Assembly (NCBI GenBank): GCA_028286485.1
Contig: JAQBRM010000027.1
Location: forward strand, 10,632-74,631
Direction: 5' to 3'
Origin: Candidatus Nomurabacteria bacterium
GTDB lineage: Bacteria > Patescibacteriota > Minisyncoccia > Phycocordibacterales > UBA9973
Length of the DNA stretch: 64,000 bases
The number at the start of each line of letters is the position of its first letter. Positions within the stretch are counted from its first letter, which is position 1. A program made the translations under genes and the position numbers. Under the pieces are notes generated by a model, which had not been told where the DNA came from, ran no database searches, and saw only the letters and a list, made by a program, of their open reading frames with translations. Of this stretch, positions 633-47,374 are shown piece by piece.

Positions 633-676
633 AAAATGCCTTACTCATTCCTAATATGAGTAAGGCATTTTATTTT
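633..676. terminator. bidirectional rho-independent terminator hairpin
   Basis: Perfect inverted repeat aaaatgccttactcat / atgagtaaggcatttt with A-run and T-run flanks, directly after the ddl stop codon. Confidence 0.6.
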
Positions 677-1626
677 TCCTCCACTACCGACTTCACGAAC
701 TCTTGCAGCGTGGCGCCGACGGCATCGAGGGCCACGAGAAACGGTGCATTGTTCGTGAGATGCGGGTGCGTATCCAGCTCGATGAACCACGGCTTGCCGC
801 GCTTATCGACGATGAATTCACTTTGAGAATAATCTTTGGCACCGAAATGCTTGTGCAACCGTTTCGCCAATTCAGAAAGCGTGTCCCGTTCGTCCGCACT
901 GAAGCCGCCATGCAGGCGCGCATAGTCTTCTTCGCCATTGCGCATTTCATTACTAAGAATACCACGCGACGGTGACTGTACTTCTACGACCGGCAACGCG
1001 TAGGTCTCTTGATTACGAAAATGATCGATCACGCCAACGGCCGCTTCCCTGCCATAGATATATTGCTCGGCTAAAAACGGTTCGTGGTTGTGAATGCTTT
1101 CTTCCACGAACTGCGCCAGGTCCAGCGGAGTAAATGCGAAGTAGGTGCGCAATGATGCGCCACCGGATAATGGTTTCAAGACCCACGGTGGTGCCATGGT
1201 TTTATAAATGCGCTGTGATACTTCTGAGACCGACTCATTGCCTTCGGGAATAATCAAAATGGACTGAGGAGTATCAATACCCAAGGCTTTGGCATGATTC
1301 TTGGCGCGTTGTTTATCAAATGCCAATTCCGCGGTTTGAAACGGCGCGCCAGTATACGGAATGGCATTAATATCCAGCAAGGCTTGGATTTGTCCGTCCT
1401 CCCCAAAGCTGCCATGCAAGGCATTCCAGACCTTATCAACCGACTGCTTGGCATCCTCCATATCGGCGGGAATGCCTTTGATGTGCAGCACGCCTTCCTT
1501 GTCGAGCAGCATGTCCACGGCTTCCAAGCCCGCGTCATGCAGCGCGCGCTGCACGTTCGCTCCCGTCTTCAATGACAGGTCATATTCTTCACTGACGCCG
1601 CCGCGCAGTATCCCGATTCGTTGCAT
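670..1626 (-). CDS. ddl: D-alanine--D-alanine ligase
   Basis: N-terminus MQRIGILRGGVSEEYDLSLKTG is the classic Ddl start. ATP-grasp architecture. Length 318 aa is typical. Confidence 0.9.
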   Translation of the reverse strand: MQRIGILRGGVSEEYDLSLKTGANVQRALHDAGLEAVDMLLDKEGVLHIKGIPADMEDAKQSVDKVWNALHGSFGEDGQIQALLDINAIPYTGAPFQTAELAFDKQRAKNHAKALGIDTPQSILIIPEGNESVSEVSQRIYKTMAPPWVLKPLSGGASLRTYFAFTPLDLAQFVEESIHNHEPFLAEQYIYGREAAVGVIDHFRNQETYALPVVEVQSPSRGILSNEMRNGEEDYARLHGGFSADERDTLSELAKRLHKHFGAKDYSQSEFIVDKRGKPWFIELDTHPHLTNNAPFLVALDAVGATLQEFVKSVVEEK

Positions 1627-1646
1627 GGCTATAGTATAGCAAATTG

Positions 1647-2060
1647 CTATAAATATAGGTTAATTTCAGGATAGACAATAATTTTTCTTTCTTTAACATC
1701 TGCAATTGATACCCATTCCGCATATTCATTTTCCTTATCAAGAATTTTTATTTTTTCTTTTGTGTTTAGATTATCGTCTTTGATATCAGCTTTGTATAAA
1801 AAAGTAATTTCTTGGTTCGGTTCGCCATTGTATTCAAAAATATTTTCAATCACTGTTAGCAACTTCTCATTTGCTAGTTTTACTCCTAGCTCTTCCTGTA
1901 ATTCGCGCTCAAGCGCAACCAGTGATGTTTCGCCAAATTCAATTCCCCCACCTATCAGGCGTCCAAAATGCTTGCCCGTTTTTTTATCAACTGCGCTATG
2001 CACGAGCAAATTTCCATTTCGAACAATAATGGCAAGGGCGTTTGGGCGAATTTGTTTCAT
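1647..2060 (-). CDS. NUDIX hydrolase
   Basis: NUDIX box GGGIEFGETSLVALERELQEELGV (GX5EX7REUXEEXGU). 137 aa. Confidence 0.8.
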   Translation of the reverse strand: MKQIRPNALAIIVRNGNLLVHSAVDKKTGKHFGRLIGGGIEFGETSLVALERELQEELGVKLANEKLLTVIENIFEYNGEPNQEITFLYKADIKDDNLNTKEKIKILDKENEYAEWVSIADVKERKIIVYPEINLYL

Positions 2061-2100
2061 TAATTACTATAATATAGCAAATGAAAAACTATACAAAGCA

Positions 2101-2297
2101 ATTAAATGGGGACAGGCCCATTTTTATATTTTATTTATCTTAAAAAAAGACCTTAATTATAAAGATATACTAGATAATGTTGCATTAATAATGGGCGGTA
2201 AAATCATAAGATTGAAAATTATCGAGATAAAAAGCTTATATAGTTGAGTACAAATGTATTAAAGATTTTCTAAAAAGGGGCCTGTCCCTATTTATTT
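2101..2297. mobile_element. REPIN/MITE-like doublet: two inverted 28-bp REP-like termini flanking about 140 bp of AT-rich non-coding DNA
   Basis: Left arm attaaatggggacaggcccatttttata and right arm ctaaaaaggggcctgtccctatttattt are near-identical to the termini of the RAYT unit at 46415..47142. Each arm contains a GGGGaCAGGCCCC mini-hairpin. The right arm abuts the uvrC stop codon. Confidence 0.6.
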
Positions 2298-3545
2298 TTA
2301 GAGCATCGCTTTCTTTCGGCGGTCTTTGTGGAAGGTCAGGGCGAAGCGGTGGGCTTCGGAGTTGGCGAGCAGGATGGCGAATTTATGGGTTTCGATGATG
2401 GCTTGCGGACCGCTGATGAATTTGGGGCGGTGACGCTCGTCTTTGGTCACCGCAATAACGGGAATATCGAGCTGCAAATCCTTCAAGACCGTAGCCGCCG
2501 CATTGGTTTGAATGATATTGCCATCCACCACAATGACGGAAGGATACGGCCATTCGGTATGAGCCAGCCGGCGCACCAACACTTCGCGCAGCGCGCCGGC
2601 GTCATTGGCCGTATCAAATCCTCGAATGATGAATTTGCGATACTCGTTTTTATTGGAAGTGGAATTTTCTATGACCGTCATGACTCCAACCATTTGCTTG
2701 CCGGATAGGTGGGCAATATCATACGCTTCAATGCGAAATACCTGTTCCCCGCTGCTGCGCTCCAAGTCCCGCTTGATGAGCGAGATATCCTGGATGTGCT
2801 CCAACGCGAAAATTTTCTGCTTCAATTCATTGGCTTCTTCAAAGTGTTCCTGCTTGGCGGCCGCGGCCATTTCTTTTTTCAATCCTTGAATAAGCGAGCG
2901 CATTTTGCCCTGCAAGATGCATTTGATACGACCGACATTCTGGCGATACTTTTTCCCGGCTTCCGCATTTGAAACATCCGGCGCCAAGGCAATCTGCCGA
3001 TAGAAGGCCTCCTTGTCTTTCTGCGCCGAAGCACGATCCCGAAACGGAAAGATATGACGAATGATCTTCAACGCTTCGCGAATGCTCGGTCCGTTCGGAA
3101 ATGGCCCGAAGGCCGCATCGTATTTGCACTGATGCAAACCGAGTCGCGGCAATGTCACGGTCTTCGTCCTCCCATCAATATCCTTTTGTCGCACCAAAAT
3201 GATACGTGGGAAATCTTCTTTGGTGATAACCACGATATTAAAGCTCTTATCGTCTTTTTCCTTGGTGTTGTAGTAGGGCTTGTACTTCTTGATCAGGTTC
3301 GCTTCCAAGATCAACGCTTCCAACACAGTCAGTGTCGCTTCATAGGTAACCGTCGTTGCTTTGAATACCATATCGACGATATGCGCACCGCGCGTCTTTA
3401 TGACATCGGGCGCAAAATATGAGCGCACCCTGTCTCGCAGTGACGTGGCTTTGCCGATATAGAGGATCTTGCCGTCACTATCCTTCCAAAAATACACCCC
3501 CGGTTCCGCCGGTAATTCCAATTTATCCAACTCTTGACGAATCAT
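2298..3545 (-). CDS. uvrC: excinuclease ABC subunit C, short form lacking the C-terminal (HhH)2 domain
   Basis: GIY-YIG N-terminus PGVYFWKDSDGKILYIGKATSLRDRVRSYF, UVR motif (EEANELKQKIFALEHI) and a C-terminal RNaseH-like endonuclease region. 415 aa. Confidence 0.85.
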   Translation of the reverse strand: MIRQELDKLELPAEPGVYFWKDSDGKILYIGKATSLRDRVRSYFAPDVIKTRGAHIVDMVFKATTVTYEATLTVLEALILEANLIKKYKPYYNTKEKDDKSFNIVVITKEDFPRIILVRQKDIDGRTKTVTLPRLGLHQCKYDAAFGPFPNGPSIREALKIIRHIFPFRDRASAQKDKEAFYRQIALAPDVSNAEAGKKYRQNVGRIKCILQGKMRSLIQGLKKEMAAAAKQEHFEEANELKQKIFALEHIQDISLIKRDLERSSGEQVFRIEAYDIAHLSGKQMVGVMTVIENSTSNKNEYRKFIIRGFDTANDAGALREVLVRRLAHTEWPYPSVIVVDGNIIQTNAAATVLKDLQLDIPVIAVTKDERHRPKFISGPQAIIETHKFAILLANSEAHRFALTFHKDRRKKAML

Positions 3546-3925
3546 GATTTTGATTTAAGCAGTTCCAGAATTTTATCCAACTTGTCATTCTCAATCGAGT
3601 TTAAGCGACTGATGATATCTTCAATTTCTTTTTTCGATTCCACATTCGTTTCGTAGTCCGCGTCAGCGCGCAATTCGGAATGGCGGCTTTGCAGGTTTTG
3701 TCCGATCATGATGATGGATAGCAAGACCAGTTGTAGGAACGTTTGAGCAATCCACGAAATAATGGTCGCTGTGCCTCCTTGAAGGGCTTGCGGCAAACTG
3801 ATCAATGCCAGAATGGTAAAGGCGATGGCACACCACATGGTGCCGACTATTTTGGTAATAAACAGCGCGGCTTTGTCCAATGGATTAAGGTTTTCCTTGT
3901 GTTCTTTATTGACGTTTCGGGGCAT
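3542..3925 (-). CDS. small membrane protein (DUF1003-like), two TM helices plus a C-terminal coiled coil
   Basis: Hydrophobic segments IVGTMWCAIAFTILALISL and FLQLVLLSIIMIGQNL. Overlaps the uvrC start by 4 nt. Confidence 0.45.
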   Translation of the reverse strand: MPRNVNKEHKENLNPLDKAALFITKIVGTMWCAIAFTILALISLPQALQGGTATIISWIAQTFLQLVLLSIIMIGQNLQSRHSELRADADYETNVESKKEIEDIISRLNSIENDKLDKILELLKSKS

Positions 3926-3937
3926 GCCCGAATTGTA

Positions 3938-4843
3938 CTACATAAAGGCACGCTGCACCTCATCAATGATCTCTTCCCAAACCGGCTCATTGTTTTTGTT
4001 GTAGTTGAAGATAGCCTCATTGGCGGCGGTAATATATTCATCCGCCGTCTCCTCCGCAAATGACAGTGCGTCGGCGAAGTCCTTGGCGGGGTGATTATCC
4101 ATAAACCATGTGATCAGTGTCTGCTTCTTTTCTTTCATATCGGTCGGGCAGTCCGTGATGTCATCCAAAAGTTGGAATACCATACCGAGATTAGTGGCAT
4201 AGTTTTCCGCAAAATCCCTTGACTCCTCATCAATACCGGCCAGCAGCATGCCGATATGCAATGGTCGATAGAAAGAATAGTGCGCGCTTTTTAATTCCAT
4301 GGTCTTCTCGATCATGTCCCGAGATAGTACTTGTTCGCTGCTGTATAGCACATCCAGCATCTGCCCATGAATGACTTCCGCCAAGACCGTGGCGAACTCT
4401 TTGCGCACATCATCAATAGTATAGGGTTCGACCGCTTCCATTTCATCCAAGCATTCATACGCCCATGTTAGTAGTACGTCTCCGGCCAGAATGGCAATCG
4501 ATGAGCCGAATTTTTTATTCATCGTCATGACGCCTCGTCGCGTATGTTCGTCATCAATCACATCATCGTGCACCAGACAAAAGAAGTGCAGCAGTTCTAT
4601 AGCGGCCAGCAAGGGGAAAATATCCTGCTCACCACCTTCCGTCACATAGCCGCAGTACGTCATGTACGGCCGGAAGCGTTTGCCTTCTTGCGCCACGGCC
4701 TGCAAATGAAAAATAATTTCCCGTACGGCTTTGTTCTCGCTATAATTGCTAAATATCCTGCCTTTCTCTTCAATAAGCGCCATGAAGCGATCATCGAAGA
4801 AATTTTTAAACTCATTTAAATTCATCATTTCCCCATCATACAA
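3938..4843 (-). CDS. polyprenyl diphosphate synthase (trans-isoprenyl diphosphate synthase family)
   Basis: First DDxxD motif LVHDDVIDDEHTRRG and second motif FQLLDDITD. 301 aa. Confidence 0.85.
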   Translation of the reverse strand: MYDGEMMNLNEFKNFFDDRFMALIEEKGRIFSNYSENKAVREIIFHLQAVAQEGKRFRPYMTYCGYVTEGGEQDIFPLLAAIELLHFFCLVHDDVIDDEHTRRGVMTMNKKFGSSIAILAGDVLLTWAYECLDEMEAVEPYTIDDVRKEFATVLAEVIHGQMLDVLYSSEQVLSRDMIEKTMELKSAHYSFYRPLHIGMLLAGIDEESRDFAENYATNLGMVFQLLDDITDCPTDMKEKKQTLITWFMDNHPAKDFADALSFAEETADEYITAANEAIFNYNKNNEPVWEEIIDEVQRAFM

Positions 4844-4884
4844 AATGAGCGGTCAAGGGAATCCGAAGAAATAATAAAGAAGAA

Positions 4885-7548
4885 TTAAAGAATTTTTTTC
4901 AGGTAACCACCGGTGTAGGAATGCTTGTTGTTGGCGACTTCTTCCGGTGTGCCTTTAGCCACGATCTTACCGCCATGCACGCCGCCTTCCGGACCGAAGT
5001 CGATCAGCCAGTCAGCACATTTGATGAGGTCGAGATTGTGTTCAATCACTACCACGGTGTTGCCCTTGGCAACGAGACGATTCAATACACCGATCAAATT
5101 TTTCACATCATCGTAGTGCAAGCCCACCGTCGGTTCATCCAAGAGATAAATAGTTTTCTCCAAATACGGACGATAGAGTTCCGAGGCGATCTTCACGCGT
5201 TGCGCTTCGCCGCCGGACAATGTCGTGGCGCTCTGACCCAGCTTCACATATCCCAAACCAACGTCGGACAGTGTTTTCAATCGGTCATACAGGGCCGGAA
5301 TTTCTCCAAAGAATTCCAAGGCTTCTTCCACTGTCAGCTGCAACACATCATAAATATTCTTCTTCTTGTATTTCACCACCAATGTTTCCTTATCAAAACG
5401 TTTGCCATTGCAAACATCACAAGTCACATACACGGTCGGCAAGAAGTGCATCTCTACTGCGATCTCGCCATTACCTTCACACGCTTCACAACGGCCGCCT
5501 TTGACATTGAATGAGAAGCGGTTGATCTTCCAGCCGCGCAAACGGGCTTCATCCGTCGCTGCAAAGAGATCACGAATATGGGTAAAAGCACCGGTGTAGG
5601 TGGCAATGTTGGAGCGCGGAGTGCGACCGATAGCGGACTGATCAATCATAATGGCGCGTGCCAAATACTCGCTGCCGCTGAATGAAGCACAATTGAATGT
5701 CTTGGCGCTGCGCATCTTGCGTTCAAAACGCGCCTGCAAATTACTGTATAAAATATCATACAAAAAAGTACTTTTGCCAGAACCGGACACACCGGTAATA
5801 GCCACCATCTTGCCGAGCGGTACTTCAATGTTTTGATTATGGAGATTGTGCAAGTTGGCGCCGACTATTTTAATAGTGCCCTTGTCGGTATCACGTCGCT
5901 TGTCAGGAATTTCTATAGCTTCTTCTTTACGCAGATATGCCAACGTACGAGAACCGGAAGGATTTGTTTTAGCTGCTAACAATTTATCGAGATAGCCTGA
6001 TACCACGACTTGTCCACCATGAATGCCAGCTTTCGGACCGATATCGATAATGTAGTCTGACGCATAGATAGTATCTTCATCGTGCTCCACCACGATGATG
6101 GTATTGCCGATGTCACGCAGATCTTCCAAGGTACGGATCAGTCGTTCATTGTCACGTTGGTGTAAGCCAATTGTTGGTTCGTCCAACACATATAATGCAC
6201 CGACCAATCGAGAGCCGAGCTGTGAGGCGAGACGAATACGCTGTGCTTCCCCGCCGGACAACGTATTGGCGGTACGATTCAATGCCAAGTATTCCAACCC
6301 AACATTCAAAAGGAAATTCAAACGATCTTCAATTTCCTTGGTGACCGCATTGGCAACTTCGCGATCCTTGGCGGAAAGCTTGATGGTGACGAAGAAGTTA
6401 AATGCTTCTTCCACGGACATGGACGTCAGATCAACAATATTTATCCCTCTCACGGTGCCGTCTTCATTTGTCTTGGTCGTTCCAAGAAATACATTCAAGG
6501 CTTCGGGCCGCAGGCGCTTGCCGTGACATGATTCACATGGTTCCGTGCCGCCGAAAAACTTCGTGCCGATACCATTACAAGCCGGACAGGCGCCGTATGG
6601 ACTATTAAAAGAGAAGAGGCGCGGTTCTATTTCCGGAAATGAGAAGCCATCATTCGGACAAGCGAATTTGCTGGACAGGAGAAATTCCTGCAAGAGGTCG
6701 GTATCCATGGAGAAGTCCGGCGATGTGCCGAATGTCACTTGCACCAAACCGTCCGCTTCGAGTAATGCCCGCTCAACCGCTTCGGATAGTCGCAGCTCGG
6801 CGTCACGAGGCGTATCCTTGAATTCATGTACGGCGAGTTCATCCACCAGCACTTCGATATTGTGGGTGGTGGTCTTGTTCATTTCAATGCGTTCACGCAG
6901 GTTGTGCATTTTGCCATCGACGCGCACGGTTGAAAAACCGCGACCGAGCAAATCGTACAGCAGCTGGTAGTATTCGCCTTTTCGTCCGCGCACGACCGGC
7001 GCATAAATTTGAATGCGGGTATCGTTCCATGCCACTCCCATGACTTCCTTTTTTTGTTTGGCAGTACTGGCTTTGGAAATATCCTTGATTTTACTTAAAA
7101 CGAAACTGTTGATTTCTTCCATCGAAAGTTTTTGAATGAGCGTGCCACAGACCGGACAGTAGGCTTTGCCGACGCGCGCATAGAGCACGCGCAGGTAGTC
7201 GTAAATTTCCGTGATAGTTGCCACAGTTGAACGAGGGTTGTTGGAGCGGGACTTTTGATCGATTGAGATCGCCGGTGACAGTCCGGTAATCTCATCGACA
7301 TCGGGCTTGGGCATTTGATTCAAGAATTGCCGCGCATAGGAAGACAATGACTCAACGTATCGGCGTTGGCCCTCGGCAAAAATAGTATCGAAGGCCAACG
7401 AACTCTTCCCTGACCCTGACATGCCGGTAATGGCAATCATGGCGTTTCGCGGCATTTCGACACTGATATTCTTAAGGTTATGCGTCCGCGCGCCTTTGAC
7501 AATAATGCTTTCAGCGGCGGTCTCAGCTGTTCTTTTCCTTTTTTCCAC
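4885..7548 (-). CDS. uvrA: excinuclease ABC subunit A
   Basis: Walker A GMSGSGKSSLAFDTIFAEGQRRYVESLSSYARQF, duplicated ABC ATPase modules, zinc-finger cysteines. 887 aa. Confidence 0.95.
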   Translation of the reverse strand: MEKRKRTAETAAESIIVKGARTHNLKNISVEMPRNAMIAITGMSGSGKSSLAFDTIFAEGQRRYVESLSSYARQFLNQMPKPDVDEITGLSPAISIDQKSRSNNPRSTVATITEIYDYLRVLYARVGKAYCPVCGTLIQKLSMEEINSFVLSKIKDISKASTAKQKKEVMGVAWNDTRIQIYAPVVRGRKGEYYQLLYDLLGRGFSTVRVDGKMHNLRERIEMNKTTTHNIEVLVDELAVHEFKDTPRDAELRLSEAVERALLEADGLVQVTFGTSPDFSMDTDLLQEFLLSSKFACPNDGFSFPEIEPRLFSFNSPYGACPACNGIGTKFFGGTEPCESCHGKRLRPEALNVFLGTTKTNEDGTVRGINIVDLTSMSVEEAFNFFVTIKLSAKDREVANAVTKEIEDRLNFLLNVGLEYLALNRTANTLSGGEAQRIRLASQLGSRLVGALYVLDEPTIGLHQRDNERLIRTLEDLRDIGNTIIVVEHDEDTIYASDYIIDIGPKAGIHGGQVVVSGYLDKLLAAKTNPSGSRTLAYLRKEEAIEIPDKRRDTDKGTIKIVGANLHNLHNQNIEVPLGKMVAITGVSGSGKSTFLYDILYSNLQARFERKMRSAKTFNCASFSGSEYLARAIMIDQSAIGRTPRSNIATYTGAFTHIRDLFAATDEARLRGWKINRFSFNVKGGRCEACEGNGEIAVEMHFLPTVYVTCDVCNGKRFDKETLVVKYKKKNIYDVLQLTVEEALEFFGEIPALYDRLKTLSDVGLGYVKLGQSATTLSGGEAQRVKIASELYRPYLEKTIYLLDEPTVGLHYDDVKNLIGVLNRLVAKGNTVVVIEHNLDLIKCADWLIDFGPEGGVHGGKIVAKGTPEEVANNKHSYTGGYLKKIL

Positions 7549-7584: not shown

Positions 7585-9642
7585 CTAGGGATTGATGTAT
7601 GTTTTCTCGCGGAGGACTTTGATTTCATCGCGCAGGATGGCGGCGGTTTCGAAGTCGAGCAGTTTGACGGATTCTTTCATTTCGGACTCTTTGATGGCGA
7701 TCAGTTTTTCAATCGGATTCTTTTTTCCTCGCTTGCCTTTGCCATCTTTTTCCAATTGCGCAAACAATGCAATATCAAGGGCCAGCTCGGCATTGACGGC
7801 TTTGCTGTGTGCACTCTCCATGCCCTGCGTGATGTCCAGAATTTTCTTTTGAATGGTCATCGGCGTAATGCCATGCTCTTTGTTATAGGCCAGCTGAATA
7901 TTGCGACGACGTGTGGTCTCGCCAATGGCGCGCTCCATGGAGCCGGTCATGTTGTCGGCATAGAGAATGACACGGCCGTTGGAATTACGAGCGGCACGAC
8001 CGATAGTCTGAATGAGTGACACTTCACTGCGCAGGAATCCTTCCTTGTCCGCATCCAAGATACCGATCAACGTGACCTCCGGCATATCCAATCCTTCACG
8101 AAGCAGGTTCACACCGATCAGAATATCGAACTCCCCTCTGCGAAAACTGGTAATGATCTTGATACGATCGATCGTTTTGATATCGCTGTGAATGTACGCC
8201 ACTTTGATTTTCTTTTCTTTGACGTAGTCGGTCAGATCTTCTGCCATGCGCTTCGTCAATGTCGTAACCAAGACACGTCCGCCTTTGGCAATTTCCTTTT
8301 CGGACTCGCTGATCAGATCGTGTATTTGCCCCAAGTACTCGCCATTTTCCAAAATAGGCTTCACTTCCACCATCGGGTCCACCAGACCGGTCGGTCGGAT
8401 AATTTGCTCCACCACTTTGGTGGAATGCTCATGCTCGTATTTTCCGGGTGTAGCAGAGACAAAAATAGTCTGGCCGATGCGGTCTTTGAATTCCTCAAAC
8501 TTCAGCGGTCTGTTATCCTTGGCACTCGGCAATCGAAAGCCGAATTCCACCAATGTCTGCTTGCGTGAGGCGTCCCCCGCATACATACCTTGCAGCTGCG
8601 GCAATGTCACATGCGACTCATCAACGAATAGCATGAAGTCCGGGCTGCCATCGGCTTTGTGCGGGAAATACGACAACAATGTTTCAGGTGGTTCGCCTGC
8701 CATTTTGCCTGACATGTGCCGAGAGTAATTCTCAATACCGGAACAGTAGCCAACCTCACGGATCATGGCGAGGTCATACGTCGTGCGACGCTTGATACGC
8801 TCCGCTTCCAAAAGCTTTCCTTCCAATTCAAAATGCTTCAGCTGCTCATTGAGCTCATGCTGAATATCGGCAATAGCGCGATTCTTCTCGTCTTCATTGG
8901 TGATGAAGTGTTTGGCCGGGAAAATAAAAACAGTTTCTTCTTCCGACAAAATACGCGCTGAGACCGGATCGATCTTCAAGATGCTTTTCACGGTCGTACC
9001 GGAAAATTCCACCATGTATTGAATAGTGTCTGAGACAGGCATGATCTCCACCTTGTTGCCCAACGCGCGAAATTGCCCTGATGACAGGTCAGCGTTGGTA
9101 CGAGAAAAGTGAATACTGACTAAACGCTCCATAGCTTCAGTGCGGGACAAGGTCATGCCTTTTTCTATTTTGAAATTTTTCTTCTCATATTCTACCGGAC
9201 TACCGAGACCGTAAATACATGACACTGATGCCACAATGATCACGTCCTTGCGCGTCAGCAATGACTGCGTGGTAGCGTGACGCAAACGATCAATCTCCTT
9301 GTTGATCTGCGCGTCTTTTTCAATGTACGTATCAGTGACGGGCATGTAGGCTTCTGGTTGGTAGTAGTCGTAGTATGAGACGAAGTAGTGCACGGCATTA
9401 TTGGGAAAAAATTCGGCAAACTCGCTGGCCAGCTGTGCCGCCAGTGTTTTGTTGTGGGCAATGACCAGCGTCGGTTTCTGGATATCGGCGATGATATTGG
9501 CCATGGTAAATGTCTTGCCGGTGCCCGTAGCACCCAGCAAGGTCTGCATCTGCTCGCCCTTTTTCAGCCCTGCCAATAAGCCTTTTATGGCTTTAGGCTG
9601 GTCTCCGGCCGGTTGATAGTGGTTGGAAAGCTCGAATTTCAT
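7585..9642 (-). CDS. uvrB: excinuclease ABC subunit B
   Basis: UvrB helicase motifs GATGTGKTFTMANIIA and DESHVTLPQ, with a C-terminal UVR motif. 685 aa. Confidence 0.95.
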   Translation of the reverse strand: MKFELSNHYQPAGDQPKAIKGLLAGLKKGEQMQTLLGATGTGKTFTMANIIADIQKPTLVIAHNKTLAAQLASEFAEFFPNNAVHYFVSYYDYYQPEAYMPVTDTYIEKDAQINKEIDRLRHATTQSLLTRKDVIIVASVSCIYGLGSPVEYEKKNFKIEKGMTLSRTEAMERLVSIHFSRTNADLSSGQFRALGNKVEIMPVSDTIQYMVEFSGTTVKSILKIDPVSARILSEEETVFIFPAKHFITNEDEKNRAIADIQHELNEQLKHFELEGKLLEAERIKRRTTYDLAMIREVGYCSGIENYSRHMSGKMAGEPPETLLSYFPHKADGSPDFMLFVDESHVTLPQLQGMYAGDASRKQTLVEFGFRLPSAKDNRPLKFEEFKDRIGQTIFVSATPGKYEHEHSTKVVEQIIRPTGLVDPMVEVKPILENGEYLGQIHDLISESEKEIAKGGRVLVTTLTKRMAEDLTDYVKEKKIKVAYIHSDIKTIDRIKIITSFRRGEFDILIGVNLLREGLDMPEVTLIGILDADKEGFLRSEVSLIQTIGRAARNSNGRVILYADNMTGSMERAIGETTRRRNIQLAYNKEHGITPMTIQKKILDITQGMESAHSKAVNAELALDIALFAQLEKDGKGKRGKKNPIEKLIAIKESEMKESVKLLDFETAAILRDEIKVLREKTYINP

Positions 9643-9884: not shown

Positions 9885-11105
9885 CTACAGACTGACAGTC
9901 GGTGGGTAGTACTGTGCCAAGAAATCTTTCTTGTATTGATGAAATGTATCATTCAAAATGCTCTCGCGAATGTTTTCGACCAATCGCAAGATAAAATGCA
10001 GATTGTGAATGGAGGCCAACGTGGCAGCGGTCATTTCATCGGCTCGAAAAAGGTGTGCCAAATATGCGCGAGTGTGGTGCTGACAGGTATAGCACATGCA
10101 GCCTTCCTCAATCGGCAGGAACTGGTCGACAAACTGCGCATTGCGAATATTGAGACGTCCGCGCGACGTGTGCAAGGTGCCGTGACGACCCATGCGCGTC
10201 GGTGCAATGCAATCAAATAAATCACAGCCGGCTTCCACGGCATTGAAAAGATCAAGCGGTTCGCCGATACCGAGCAGGTGTCGCGGCTTGTCTTCCGGCA
10301 GCAAGGCATTGACCCATCCTACTGCAGTACCGATATCTTCCTTGGTAAAGGATCCGCCGATGCCGTATCCATCGAATCCTTCGCCATATTCGGAACTGGC
10401 GGCCAGCGCTCCTAATGTTCGTGCCGCTTCCTCACGCAGATCCTGAAACCGTCCCCCTTGAATCACGGCGAAAAGGCTTTGCCTTTTCGCCGTATCAAGT
10501 TCATTGTGTCGCGCGAGGCTGCGCTTGGCCCAGTCATACGTTCGTGCCAGTGATTTCTTTTGATATTCGTACGGCGCAGTCGGACTGGTGCATTCATCAA
10601 AGGCGAAGATCATATCGGCGCCGAGCTTCCATTGGATATCCATGGAAGACTCGGGAGTAAATAAATGCTTGCTGCCATCCAAGTGCGACTTGAATGTCAC
10701 GCCTTCATCGGTCACATGCGCCAATTGTCCGCTGTGCACTGATACATCCTCCACTTCATCACCGGTGGCAATCTTGCTGACCGCGGTACCAAAAGCCGCG
10801 CCCAATGAAAATGCTTGAAAGCCGCCCGAGTCCGTCATGGTCGGTCCGTGCCAATCCATAAAAGGACCGAATCCTCCAGCCTGCGCCACGATGTCCTCTC
10901 CGGGCTGCAAATACAAATGGTAGGTATTGGCCAATACCACCTGCGCGCCCAAGCTCCGTATCTGCTCCGCCGTCAATGCCTTCACCGTCGCCTTCGTACC
11001 CACCGCCACGAATGCCGGCGTCTTGATCTCACCATGTGCCGTTTCAATCACCCCGGCCCTACCCAACGTTCCCTCCAACTTCTTTTGTATCGTAAATTTC
11101 AACAT
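9885..11105 (-). CDS. tgt: queuine tRNA-ribosyltransferase
   Basis: TIM-barrel Tgt N-terminus (GVIETAHGEIKTPAFVAVGTKATVK) and zinc site CMCYTCQHHTRAYLAHL. Confidence 0.9.
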   Translation of the reverse strand: MLKFTIQKKLEGTLGRAGVIETAHGEIKTPAFVAVGTKATVKALTAEQIRSLGAQVVLANTYHLYLQPGEDIVAQAGGFGPFMDWHGPTMTDSGGFQAFSLGAAFGTAVSKIATGDEVEDVSVHSGQLAHVTDEGVTFKSHLDGSKHLFTPESSMDIQWKLGADMIFAFDECTSPTAPYEYQKKSLARTYDWAKRSLARHNELDTAKRQSLFAVIQGGRFQDLREEAARTLGALAASSEYGEGFDGYGIGGSFTKEDIGTAVGWVNALLPEDKPRHLLGIGEPLDLFNAVEAGCDLFDCIAPTRMGRHGTLHTSRGRLNIRNAQFVDQFLPIEEGCMCYTCQHHTRAYLAHLFRADEMTAATLASIHNLHFILRLVENIRESILNDTFHQYKKDFLAQYYPPTVSL

Positions 11106-16851: not shown

Positions 16852-16927
16852 GCCGGAATAGCTCAGTTGGTAGAGCAACGCTTTTGTAAAGCGAAGGTCG
16901 TCAGTTCAAGTCTGTCTTCCGGCTCCA
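16852..16927 (+). tRNA. tRNA-Thr (anticodon UGU), CCA encoded
   Basis: 7-bp acceptor stem GCCGGAA/TTCCGGC, D-arm GCTC-AGTTGGTA-GAGC, anticodon loop TT-TGT-AA, T-loop TTCAAGT, then TCCA. Confidence 0.75.
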
Positions 16928-16971
16928 AATAAAAAGATGCACCCATAGGGTGCATCTTTTTATTTGGAGCC
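16921..16971. terminator. 51-nt perfect palindrome (24-bp arms) acting as a bidirectional terminator
   Basis: ggctccaaataaaaagatgcaccc-ata-gggtgcatctttttatttggagcc. The left arm begins with the tRNA 3' end GGCTCCA. The right arm contains the stop codon of the convergent gene 16960..17661. Confidence 0.6.
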
Positions 16972-46381: not shown

Positions 46382-46414
46382 ACATTCAGTATACGCCCCT
46401 CTTTACAGATAGCA

Positions 46415-47142
46415 AAATAAATGGGGACAGGCCCCTTTTTAGTTTTTCTTTAACGGTCATATGTAATGATAGAGAAATGCCAAGACAACCAAGAAATGAT
46501 ACTGGTAATCGAATCTATCATGTAATTAATCGAGCAAATGCGCGGCTTAAAATATTTGAAAGTGACTCAGATTATGAGCTTTTTGAGAATTTATTAATGA
46601 AAGCCCTGAGTCGTTTTTCCATAAAACTATATGCATATACCAATATGCCCAATCATTTCCATTTAGTGCTTTATTCTGAAAAACCTGCTGAGGTTTCAAA
46701 ATTCATGCACTGGTTAAGCGGTGCTTTTACCCAACATTGGCATACTCGACATGCCACCATGGGAAGCGGTCATCTATTTCAAGGCCGGTACAAATCATTT
46801 CCTATTCAAAATGGAAACCACTTACTGCAAGTATTGTTATATGTTGAACGAAATGCAGTTCGTGCAAAATTAGTTAAAAGAGCGGAAGAATGGAGATGGT
46901 GTAGTGCGTGGATAAGAAAATACGGAAATGAAAAGCAAAAGAAAATGCTTTCAGAATGGCCTATTGATGTGCCCAAAGATTATTTGAATGTTTTAAATAA
47001 AACCGATGATGAAAATATTTTAAAAGACATTAGATTCTCTATTACAAAAAGTGTTTCTATTGGGTCAGAGGGAAAAAGACCGCGAGGGCGACCTAGAAAG
47101 AAATAAAGATATTCTAAAAAGGGGCCTGTCCCCATTTATTTA
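46415..47142. mobile_element. REP–RAYT–REP unit: IS200-like Y1 (HuH) transposase gene flanked by perfect 28-bp inverted REP-like termini
   Basis: Left end aaataaatggggacaggcccctttttag. Right end ctaaaaaggggcctgtccccatttattt is its exact reverse complement. Each end contains a GGGGaCAGGCCCC hairpin. The interior is AT-rich. Confidence 0.7.
46477..47106 (+). CDS. REP-associated tyrosine transposase (RAYT; IS200/IS605 TnpA-like Y1 HuH transposase)
   Basis: HuH motif MPNHFHLVLY and a catalytic Tyr context LLYVERNAVRAKL (Y1_Tnp family pattern). The start MPRQPRND lies internal to the 46375 track ORF, which reads through the left REP. Confidence 0.8.
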   Translation: MPRQPRNDTGNRIYHVINRANARLKIFESDSDYELFENLLMKALSRFSIKLYAYTNMPNHFHLVLYSEKPAEVSKFMHWLSGAFTQHWHTRHATMGSGHLFQGRYKSFPIQNGNHLLQVLLYVERNAVRAKLVKRAEEWRWCSAWIRKYGNEKQKKMLSEWPIDVPKDYLNVLNKTDDENILKDIRFSITKSVSIGSEGKRPRGRPRKK

Positions 47143-47374
47143 CCAATGATTCTTTTTGGGGGCGAGTTAGGCGTTTCAATTCCCCTTCACGGCGACGAAC
47201 TTCGGCGTAAGTAGGAAATGATTCGCTGTAGACGAGGGTTACGGGGCGGCGGATTTTGGTGTAGTGCGCGCCGGCTTTCGAATTATTATGCTGATAAAGC
47301 CGGCGCTCCATATTGTTGGTGGAACCAACATAGTACGTGCCATCATTGCACTGCAAGATGTACGCGTGGAACAT
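47114..47374 (-). CDS. GIY-YIG nuclease-family protein (YhbQ/UPF0213-like)
   Basis: YILQCNDGTYYVGSTNNMERRLYQHN is the GIY-YIG motif. The last 7 codons and the stop (KWGQAPF*) are supplied by the right REP of the RAYT unit. Confidence 0.75.
   Translation of the reverse strand: MFHAYILQCNDGTYYVGSTNNMERRLYQHNNSKAGAHYTKIRRPVTLVYSESFPTYAEVRRREGELKRLTRPQKESLVNKWGQAPF

Follow-up and report, generated by a model that had tools for sequence, protein, structure and literature searches.

We have analysed a stretch of 64,000 nt from a contig of Candidatus Nomurabacteria, which we will call the window. It contains a unit of 198 bp, in positions 2100-2297, whose two ends are inverted copies of the ends of a transposase element located 44 kb away, in positions 46415-47141. 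The unit most likely consists of the inverted ends of this element placed around 122 nt of unrelated AT-rich filler, and it has no gene. Our preferred reading, held with slightly more conviction than doubt, is that it is a non-autonomous derivative of the transposase element, similar to a miniature inverted-repeat transposable element (MITE) or to a REPIN. REPINs are doublets of repetitive extragenic palindromic (REP) sequences which form hairpins and go together with a REP-associated tyrosine transposase, or RAYT (PMC3116915, PMC3337134, PMC5581495). The two elements have the following features:

2100..2137, forward strand: left terminal inverted repeat of the unit (AATTAAATGGGGACAGGCCCATTTTTATATTTTATTTA), which holds a 7-bp hairpin, AAATGGG/CCCATTT
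2138..2259, no strand: interior of the unit, 122 nt, 24% GC, with no open reading frame of note
2260..2297, reverse strand: right terminal inverted repeat of the unit, immediately next to the uvrC stop; its likeness to the right end of the transposase element extends to 2253
46415-47141: whole transposase element, 727 bp
46415..46452, forward strand: left terminal inverted repeat of the transposase element, directly adjoining at its outer side the -35 hexamer TTGCTA of a divergent MliC-family gene
46477..47106, forward strand: gene for a RAYT-like Y1/HUH tyrosine transposase, 209 aa; Y1_Tnp domain (PF01797) in residues 13-125, E 3.5e-16
47104..47141, reverse strand: right terminal inverted repeat of the transposase element, which shares sequence with the transposase stop and with the 3' codons of the GIY-YIG gene
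47114..47374, reverse strand: GIY-YIG gene; its last 8 codons and its stop are inside the repeat (tail NKWGQAPF, then the stop)

The repeat is about 38 nt long (core AAATAAATGGGGACAGGCCCCTTTTTAG) and is found in exactly four copies within the window, arranged as two inverted pairs. A search with the 20-mer AAATGGGGACAGGCCCATTT, allowing up to 3 mismatches, gives four matches, at 2104-2123 (+), 2274-2293 (-), 46419-46438 (+) and 47118-47137 (-); in shuffled sequences 0.01 are found. A looser search, with the 28-mer and as many as 8 mismatches, adds no copy to these four, and gives 0 matches in 20 shuffles. The left ends of the two elements (2100-2137 and 46415-46452) were aligned by the repeat finder with 87% identity over 38 nt, the right ends (2253-2297 and 47097-47141) with 89% identity over 45 nt. 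Within each element the arms are inverted: those of the transposase element (46415-46452 / 47104-47141) are 92% complementary over 38 nt, with a spacing of 651 nt, and those of the unit (2100-2137 / 2260-2297) are 79% complementary over the same length, with a spacing of 122 nt. The two 28-mers on the transposase side are identical; compared with them, the two copies in the unit have 3 and 1 changes. The initial annotation of this region already described the ends of the unit as inverted copies of those of the transposase element, which is confirmed here. The divergence of 1-2 nt which it gave is correct for the 20-mer core, but not for the 38 nt of the repeat, where the identity is 87-89%.

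The likeness of the unit to the ends of the transposase element reaches past the hairpin, into non-palindromic positions (TTTTTAGnnnnTCTTTA). Neither GTAG nor GTGG is found at the foot of the hairpin in the four copies, nor in the flanking ends of transposase homologues from other genomes. The conserved feature of the ends is (T)GGGG(A/T)C...CCCC accompanied by A/T tracts. A better description of the four repeats is that of 38-nt terminal inverted repeats with a short hairpin in each. The proposal of a REP doublet is retained as far as an inverted doublet of ends of the resident RAYT-like element is concerned; the canonical GTAG tag is absent. In the variant found in the window the innermost stem pair is broken (A opposite G), which leaves a G/C stem of 4 bp. 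The energies of the single hairpins range from -6.2 to -8.4 kcal/mol; in all copies but one of the four these are no better than in shuffled sequence. Such weak hairpins make a role as terminator or stabiliser after the stop codons, which had been proposed for these repeats, doubtful. When the whole unit is folded as single-stranded DNA, its ends close a single long hairpin (-29.8 kcal/mol, z = -4.7).

The interior of the unit has 24% GC, versus 47% in the window, and the unit as a whole has a GC fraction of 0.26; its description as AT-rich and non-coding is correct. We found no DNA or protein similarity of the interior to the transposase element, to its gene or to any of the fetched loci, and a decayed transposase gene was rejected for the interior. 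Rfam gives no match in the unit. When the whole window and 23 fetched loci were scanned with the Rfam gathering thresholds, only two tRNAs and two riboswitches appeared, none of them at the repeat. A phage or viral origin was also rejected: the unit and the neighbouring NUDIX gene have no match in phage genomes, and a 22-mer from the repeat core is absent from viral contigs.

The transposase gene occurs once in the window. Its product has the HUH motif at H60-F-H62, the catalytic Tyr122 in YVERN and a C-terminal tail RPRGRPRKK, which we take to be AT-hook-like. H60, H62, Y122 and N126 are invariant across 25 homologues, and the GRP of the tail is also conserved across them. Pfam detects only Y1_Tnp, with no C-terminal helix-turn-helix (HTH) domain. 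The NCBIfam model REP_Tyr_transpos (NF047646) gives 61.3 bits, under its cut-off of 80, in a match which covers positions 3-146 of the 146 of the profile; the IS200 model (NF033573) gives 22.6 bits, versus a cut-off of 55. With a profile of the 25 homologues the best solved structure is TnpAREP of E. coli (4ER8, E 1.4e-7), which comes before TnpA of ISDra2, and the HUH and Tyr122-x-x-x-Asn126 motifs align with EHMHC and YIYINPV of 4ER8. The profile was needed, since a search of solved structures with the single sequence gave only noise. By sequence comparison the transposase is placed nearer to RAYT/TnpAREP than to IS200, in a related clade and not as an equivalog. A search for homologues gave 1156 at E <= 0.001; among the 120 matches listed, all those with a named source come from Patescibacteria.

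GenBank contains a protein with 100% identity to it, from a metagenome-assembled genome of Candidatus Nomurabacteria (JWM92_507). This entry is annotated from 46375 (243 aa), a start placed to the left of the left repeat, in overlap with the beginning of the divergent MliC-family gene. In all homologues the protein starts with MPR..., which corresponds to 46477, and the annotated start is probably too far upstream. At the other side, the transposase stop forms the first 3 nt of the right arm. The two elements had been described as flush against stop codons. This holds for uvrC, whose stop abuts the repeat, and the transposase stop lies in the right arm; the GIY-YIG gene goes further, with 8 codons and the stop inside the repeat. 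Its orthologue in a sister genome has a different tail, ending in ...SLIMLGTGHLTI and the stop. In the window the element is found between the MliC-family gene and the GIY-YIG gene, a position which is occupied by two other genes in the close sister L130.

The association of transposase and ends extends to other Patescibacteria. We fetched the surroundings of seven transposase homologues (50-68% identity) and of one distant Y1 gene; loci and contigs are designated by L numbers. On both sides of every fetched homologue we found inverted hairpin ends whose cores are related, such as GGGGACTGTCCCC, GGGGTCAGACCCC, GGGGGTCAGGTACCC and AATGGGGACAGCCACCATT. The ends include the following:

L041: flanking end GGGGACTGTCCCC
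L044: flanking ends GGGGACAGTCCCT and CAGGGACTGTCCCTG
L126 and L127: flanking end AAATGGGGTC(A/T)GACCCCATTT
L137: flanking end AAAGGGGGTCAGGTACCCTTTTT
L141: flanking end AGGGAATGGGGACAGCCACCATT
L053, distant Y1_Tnp homologue: flanking end AGGGGTTAAACCCCT, in L053:3128-3142 and 3857-3871

In 17 aligned ends the hairpin centred on the core is paired in 84% of the cells, with changes on both sides in 7 of the 11 stem pairs. The covariation score is 0.286, versus 0.14 in shuffles (0 of 500 reached the observed value) and a maximum of 0.14 in controls with slid partners. These compensatory changes and the covariation show that the end hairpin is under structural constraint throughout the family. 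An arrangement of the gene and its terminal inverted repeats like that of the window is also found in L137 and L141. The low GC content of the transposase gene is shared as well, since its homologues are 6-10 GC points under their host loci in other genomes.

Four related genomes keep an orthologue of the transposase between the genes for T2SSE and RuvB; the gene of the window is elsewhere, and the sister L130 lacks it at the site which it has in the window. The gene and its ends have one orientation in L041 and L044 and the opposite one, at the same site, in L126 and L127, which fits either an inversion across the ends or a re-insertion at the same site. At the strain level, L138 and L139 differ from L137 by a tandem duplication of the end AAAGGGGGTCAGGTACCCTTTTT on both sides of the gene (L138:9905-9976 and 10661-10736). 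From these comparisons the segment bounded by the ends appears to act as a discrete unit, which fits an element able to move or invert.

A conserved non-coding stretch of about 190 nt adjoins the RuvB gene in L041:9690-9900, L044:9640-9860 and L126:10640-10850 (reverse strand). It has complementary ends (AATCTCTAAGCAGTC ... GACTGTTTGGAGATT) and a trailing T-run, with no Rfam family at threshold. In these three genomes it has not moved, while the adjoining transposase element is inverted. It may be an unannotated small RNA.

The unit lies next to uvrC, in a region with these genes:

2298..3545, reverse strand: uvrC, 415 aa; its stop TAA (2298-2300) abuts the repeat
1647..2060, reverse strand: NUDIX hydrolase gene, GC 0.35, GC at third codon positions (GC3) 0.29
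670..1626, reverse strand: ddl (D-Ala-D-Ala ligase), which directly follows uvrC in sister genomes

The genes had been correctly named in the initial annotation, the transposase and GIY-YIG genes included, but the ancestral junction is not NUDIX-uvrC, as it assumed; it is uvrC-ddl. We compared 80 UvrC relatives with their flanks; the comparison of the junction itself is based on 16 sister genomes and the window. In these 16 close relatives ddl comes after uvrC and the unit is absent, and the NUDIX gene is absent from the uvrC loci of all 80 relatives. In 8 of the 16 sisters ddl starts 11-37 nt past the uvrC stop, which in several of them lies within the -10 box of ddl (TGCTATAAT). As uvrC of the sisters is placed directly against the ddl promoter, the 671 nt of the window correspond to an insertion of the unit plus the NUDIX gene with its own promoter. 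A truncation of uvrC by the insertion is excluded: all the relatives have about 415 aa and the same type of end (...KAML and the stop).

Other insertions are found at the same junction in 7 of the 16 sisters, with 171-1826 nt. If we include the window, 8 of the 17 genomes have unrelated cargo there, and in the other 9 the distance from uvrC to ddl is 11-68 nt:

window 1627-2297
L046:7245-7949
L047:7242-7817
L048:7245-7583
L052:7269-9095
L053:7266-8307
L054:7245-7416
L061:7236-7672

To judge from these sequences, the junction of uvrC and ddl is a hot spot of insertion in Nomurabacteria/Paceibacterota. Its cargo includes a pilin-like gene, a secreted protein and a large membrane protein, and most of the cargo genes seem to have their own promoter of the TATAAT/TATACT type. 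The insertion of L046 ends in a single hairpin end of the type associated with the transposase (AAATAAATGGGGTCTGACCTCATTTATTT). The 171-nt insertion of L054 contains a unit of about 120 nt (L054:7252-7375) with inverted ends of 15 nt (ATAAAATGGGTATAG / CTATACCCATTTTAT). The fold of this unit is very stable (z = -6.3), and no Rfam family matches it; we regard it as a candidate for a small RNA or for another miniature element.

Three contigs of the same species from other samples have an identical NUDIX protein and the unit unchanged. Thus there is no empty site at the strain level among them, and no polymorphism of presence and absence. In two of these contigs (L131 and L132) the region 1604-2407, which comprises the whole insertion and short arms, is 100% identical to the window, while the flanks have about 4-12 differences per 100 bases. 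A second identical stretch, at about 4400-5800, is found against both contigs. This mosaic of identity suggests that homologous recombination is frequent in the population.

Several observations weigh against a derivative of the transposase element which moved by itself. The empty site is shared: in the sisters it spans the unit and the NUDIX gene jointly, and neither of them was found alone in any genome. Both belong to one 671-bp indel, so that the empty site is no proof of a separate movement of the unit; the check for empty sites which had been suggested does show sister species without the unit, so that it does not refute the proposal, but at a site which the unit has in common with NUDIX. 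The tract of 100% identity within diverged flanks points to spread by homologous recombination and not by transposition. No target-site duplication is found which would mark an insertion. The repeats do not have the GTAG tag, and their hairpins are weak, with a G/C stem of only 4 bp in the variant of the window. Finally, there is one doublet in 64 kb, without further or decayed copies. Copy number is the hallmark of REPINs; for the source genome our count refers to these 64 kb, and the contigs with 100% identity found in other samples are short. In the relatives, where the count covers 10 kb on each side of the gene, we found 0-1 dispersed end copies per 20 kb, and the ends occur mostly only beside the gene, so this transposase family may rarely spawn dispersed copies. 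A genome-wide family, as had been expected, is therefore not shown by the four copies of the window and the few found in the relatives. One dispersed end is present in L126, between convergent genes, 8.9 kb from the transposase, and L052 has two hairpins of a related subtype.

An exact-pattern scan for the repeat in 185,579 species genomes gave no match. In a metagenome scan the 22-mer AAATGGGGACAGGCCC(C/A)TTTTT was found in 40 contigs (L001-L040), with about 28 distinct contexts and GC fractions of 0.34-0.72. The sites are single copies in unrelated organisms, mostly intergenic hairpins. These contigs, most of them short, contain no transposase homologue and no likeness to the 38-nt repeat beyond the core. 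The sites are uninformative on the family present in the window genome. In several of them complementary flanks lengthen the stem, and several have partial copies of TGGGGACA nearby. The candidates for this hairpin are a widespread recognition hairpin or a convergent terminator.

The best of the alternatives, to which we give perhaps one chance in a handful, is that the unit and NUDIX form a single foreign fragment, recombined into the uvrC-ddl hot spot, so that the unit would never have transposed in this genome and its ends would be alike through a common AT-rich donor lineage. NUDIX, the unit and the transposase gene (GC 0.36, GC3 0.27) are indeed all far richer in AT than uvrC and ddl (GC 0.50-0.53, GC3 about 0.6). 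The nearest NUDIX homologues (60-63% identity) are found in other contexts, in a 33% GC genome, and the gene is missing from the uvrC loci of the 80 relatives. The single identical tract which contains unit and NUDIX in strains with diverged flanks, and the unrelated cargo at this junction in 8 of 17 genomes, are also what such an import would leave. However, the low GC is a trait of the transposase family in other genomes, so it is no proof of a recent import. The ends of the unit are 87-89% identical to those of the resident element, which indicates one family in one genome, and no donor with a block of unit plus NUDIX was found. Moreover, an import addresses the arrival of the unit, not its nature.

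A little less probable, and in our opinion a minor contender, is a dead remnant: the unit would be what is left of a second full transposase element, whose gene was lost in situ by internal deletion or replacement, and it would never have moved as a miniature. At the right end the likeness does continue for 7 nt past the 38-nt repeat and covers the final codons of the transposase reading frame with its stop (89%), but in such AT-rich sequence these 7 nt are weak evidence. A remnant would also agree with the presence of a single such unit, and with the greater divergence of its ends, which have 3 and 1 changes in 28 nt while the two ends flanking the gene are identical. On the other hand, no likeness of the 122-nt interior to the transposase gene is detectable in DNA or protein. 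As miniature elements arise as deletion derivatives, this alternative overlaps with the derivative that we prefer.

That the four repeats are bidirectional terminators which evolved independently, without any mobile element, is very improbable: they do lie at gene ends or between genes, each as a G/C hairpin followed by a T-run, two of them (2104-2123 and 2276-2289) are flagged by a terminator consensus scan, and the 22-mer core occurs as an intergenic hairpin in about 28 metagenome contexts of 34%-72% GC with no transposase nearby, but convergence does not explain an identity over 38-45 nt which includes positions outside the stem, nor copies strictly in inverted pairs, nor such ends beside every transposase homologue, while three of the four hairpins are no stabler than shuffled sequence and the left copy of each pair aims its T-run into the element, with no upstream gene to terminate.

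A derivative of the transposase element can be compared with three known systems. Like REPIN-RAYT, the window has a Y1/HUH transposase gene, present once and flanked by inverted short hairpin repeats, and a distant inverted doublet of the same repeat around a spacer, which can fold into one long hairpin; the protein is also nearer to TnpAREP than to the IS200 transposases. Unlike REPIN-RAYT, the repeats do not have a 5' GTAG or GTGG tag, each is a 38-nt terminal inverted repeat with a stem of just 4-7 bp, the spacer is 122 nt of unrelated AT-rich DNA, long for a REPIN, and the copy number is apparently low (64 kb contain 4 ends, and dispersed ones are few in relatives). REPtrons are described as immobile, whereas a gene and ends of the window type seem to shift site and orientation between related genomes. 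The host is also different: it belongs to the Patescibacteria, or candidate phyla radiation (CPR), and not to the proteobacteria.

The second system is the TIRYT or 'TIRtron': tyrosine transposases with long terminal inverted repeats (TIR) and moderately abundant, dispersed TIR families (PMC3733652). TIRYTs are subclass 2.1 of Quentin et al. 2018, with a C-terminal HTH of the type Bac_DnaA_C, HTH_23 or HTH_28 (PMC6006769). As in a TIRtron, the window has a RAYT homologue within long terminal inverted repeats which are not GTAG REPs, and the repeat has copies elsewhere in the genome in low to moderate number. Unlike the TIRYTs, its transposase has no C-terminal HTH in Pfam and ends instead in an AT-hook-like RGRP, and the repeats hold a conserved, covarying hairpin.

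The third group is IS200/IS605, whose ends are non-inverted subterminal hairpins on one strand. The window shares with it, and with its gene-less derivatives (PATEs), a Y1 HUH transposase, a total element of about 700 bp, no visible target-site duplication and a miniature which keeps the ends. It differs from it in having true inverted repeats as ends and a catalytic motif Y-x-x-x-N, as in RAYTs, instead of Y-x-x-x-Q. The closest published concept is the TIR-flanked tyrosine transposase, or TIRtron, which is a closer match than REPIN-RAYT. The lack of a GTAG tag and of the TIRYT HTH, together with the score below the NCBIfam RAYT cut-off, indicate a RAYT/TIRYT-like transposase with a REPIN-like partner, in a separate clade. 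A full-text literature search found no paper linking RAYTs or REPINs with Patescibacteria/CPR, an absence which is not a proof of novelty.

If the unit is a mobile derivative, a mechanism may be proposed by analogy with the IS200/IS605 and TnpAREP enzymes (PMC6006769, PMC3479197). On single-stranded DNA each end would fold into a GGGG...CCCC hairpin, and both ends could pair into one long hairpin. The transposase would recognise the hairpins, cut through its tyrosine and rejoin the DNA; its conserved AT-hook-like tail would perhaps hold the A/T tracts beside the hairpin. A unit with two ends could thus be excised and re-inserted in trans without a gene of its own. It would have come to rest in the intergenic hot spot which separates the stop of uvrC from the promoter of ddl, beside the foreign-looking NUDIX gene. 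As a by-product uvrC may have gained a hairpin close to its stop with a T-run, and the GIY-YIG gene a new tail and stop from the repeat. Three routes of arrival are possible: transposition in trans, import together with NUDIX, or decay of a second full copy.

A wider proposal is also conceivable, which we offer as a speculation with small chances. The transposase and its inverted ends would be an active minimal element of ultra-small CPR genomes, and its end doublets and singlets would serve as portable landing pads or insulators at intergenic hot spots. The doublet at uvrC-ddl would then be tied in function to the capture and transcriptional insulation of foreign cargo like NUDIX, and the hairpin of the TGGGGACAG type would be what is recognised by a very widespread clade of tyrosine transposases not described before.

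Most descriptions of RAYT/REPIN and TIRtron systems concern Proteobacteria, along with a few other phyla whose genomes are ordinary; the present case extends this architecture to Candidatus Nomurabacteria. Patescibacteria have streamlined genomes of roughly 1 Mb, from which repeats are expected to be purged. The element is of a known kind, found in a bacterial group for which the papers searched do not describe it; it is not a new kind of system. It provides a transposase clade which has an AT-hook-like tail and whose end hairpins are conserved and covary, together with at least one miniature derivative and signs of inversion and relocation. It lends itself to testing whether elements of this sort have remained mobile in CPR bacteria, and it bears on whether they supply stop codons, gene tails and terminator-like hairpins in very compact intergenic regions.

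There are some minor observations. A promoter pattern TTTGCTATA(C/T)TAT is found throughout the lineage 5-8 nt before the ATG, in the window at 1627-1646, 2061-2085 and 46388-46415 and in the sisters upstream of ddl. Such a short distance indicates leaderless or near-leaderless mRNAs. The outer end of each left repeat adjoins a -35-like hexamer, TTGCT, of an outward-facing gene. Another hairpin repeat, AATTTGGGAGCT(T/A)AGCTCCCAAATT, is found twice in L049, in positions 3506-3530 and 8784-8808, 5 kb apart. The window also contains a perfect palindrome of 24 nt (GGCTCCAAATAAAAAGATGCACCC / GGGTGCATCTTTTTATTTGGAGCC) in positions 16921-16971, which starts inside the 3' end of a tRNA gene (16852-16924) and may be a terminator or a feature of an integration site.

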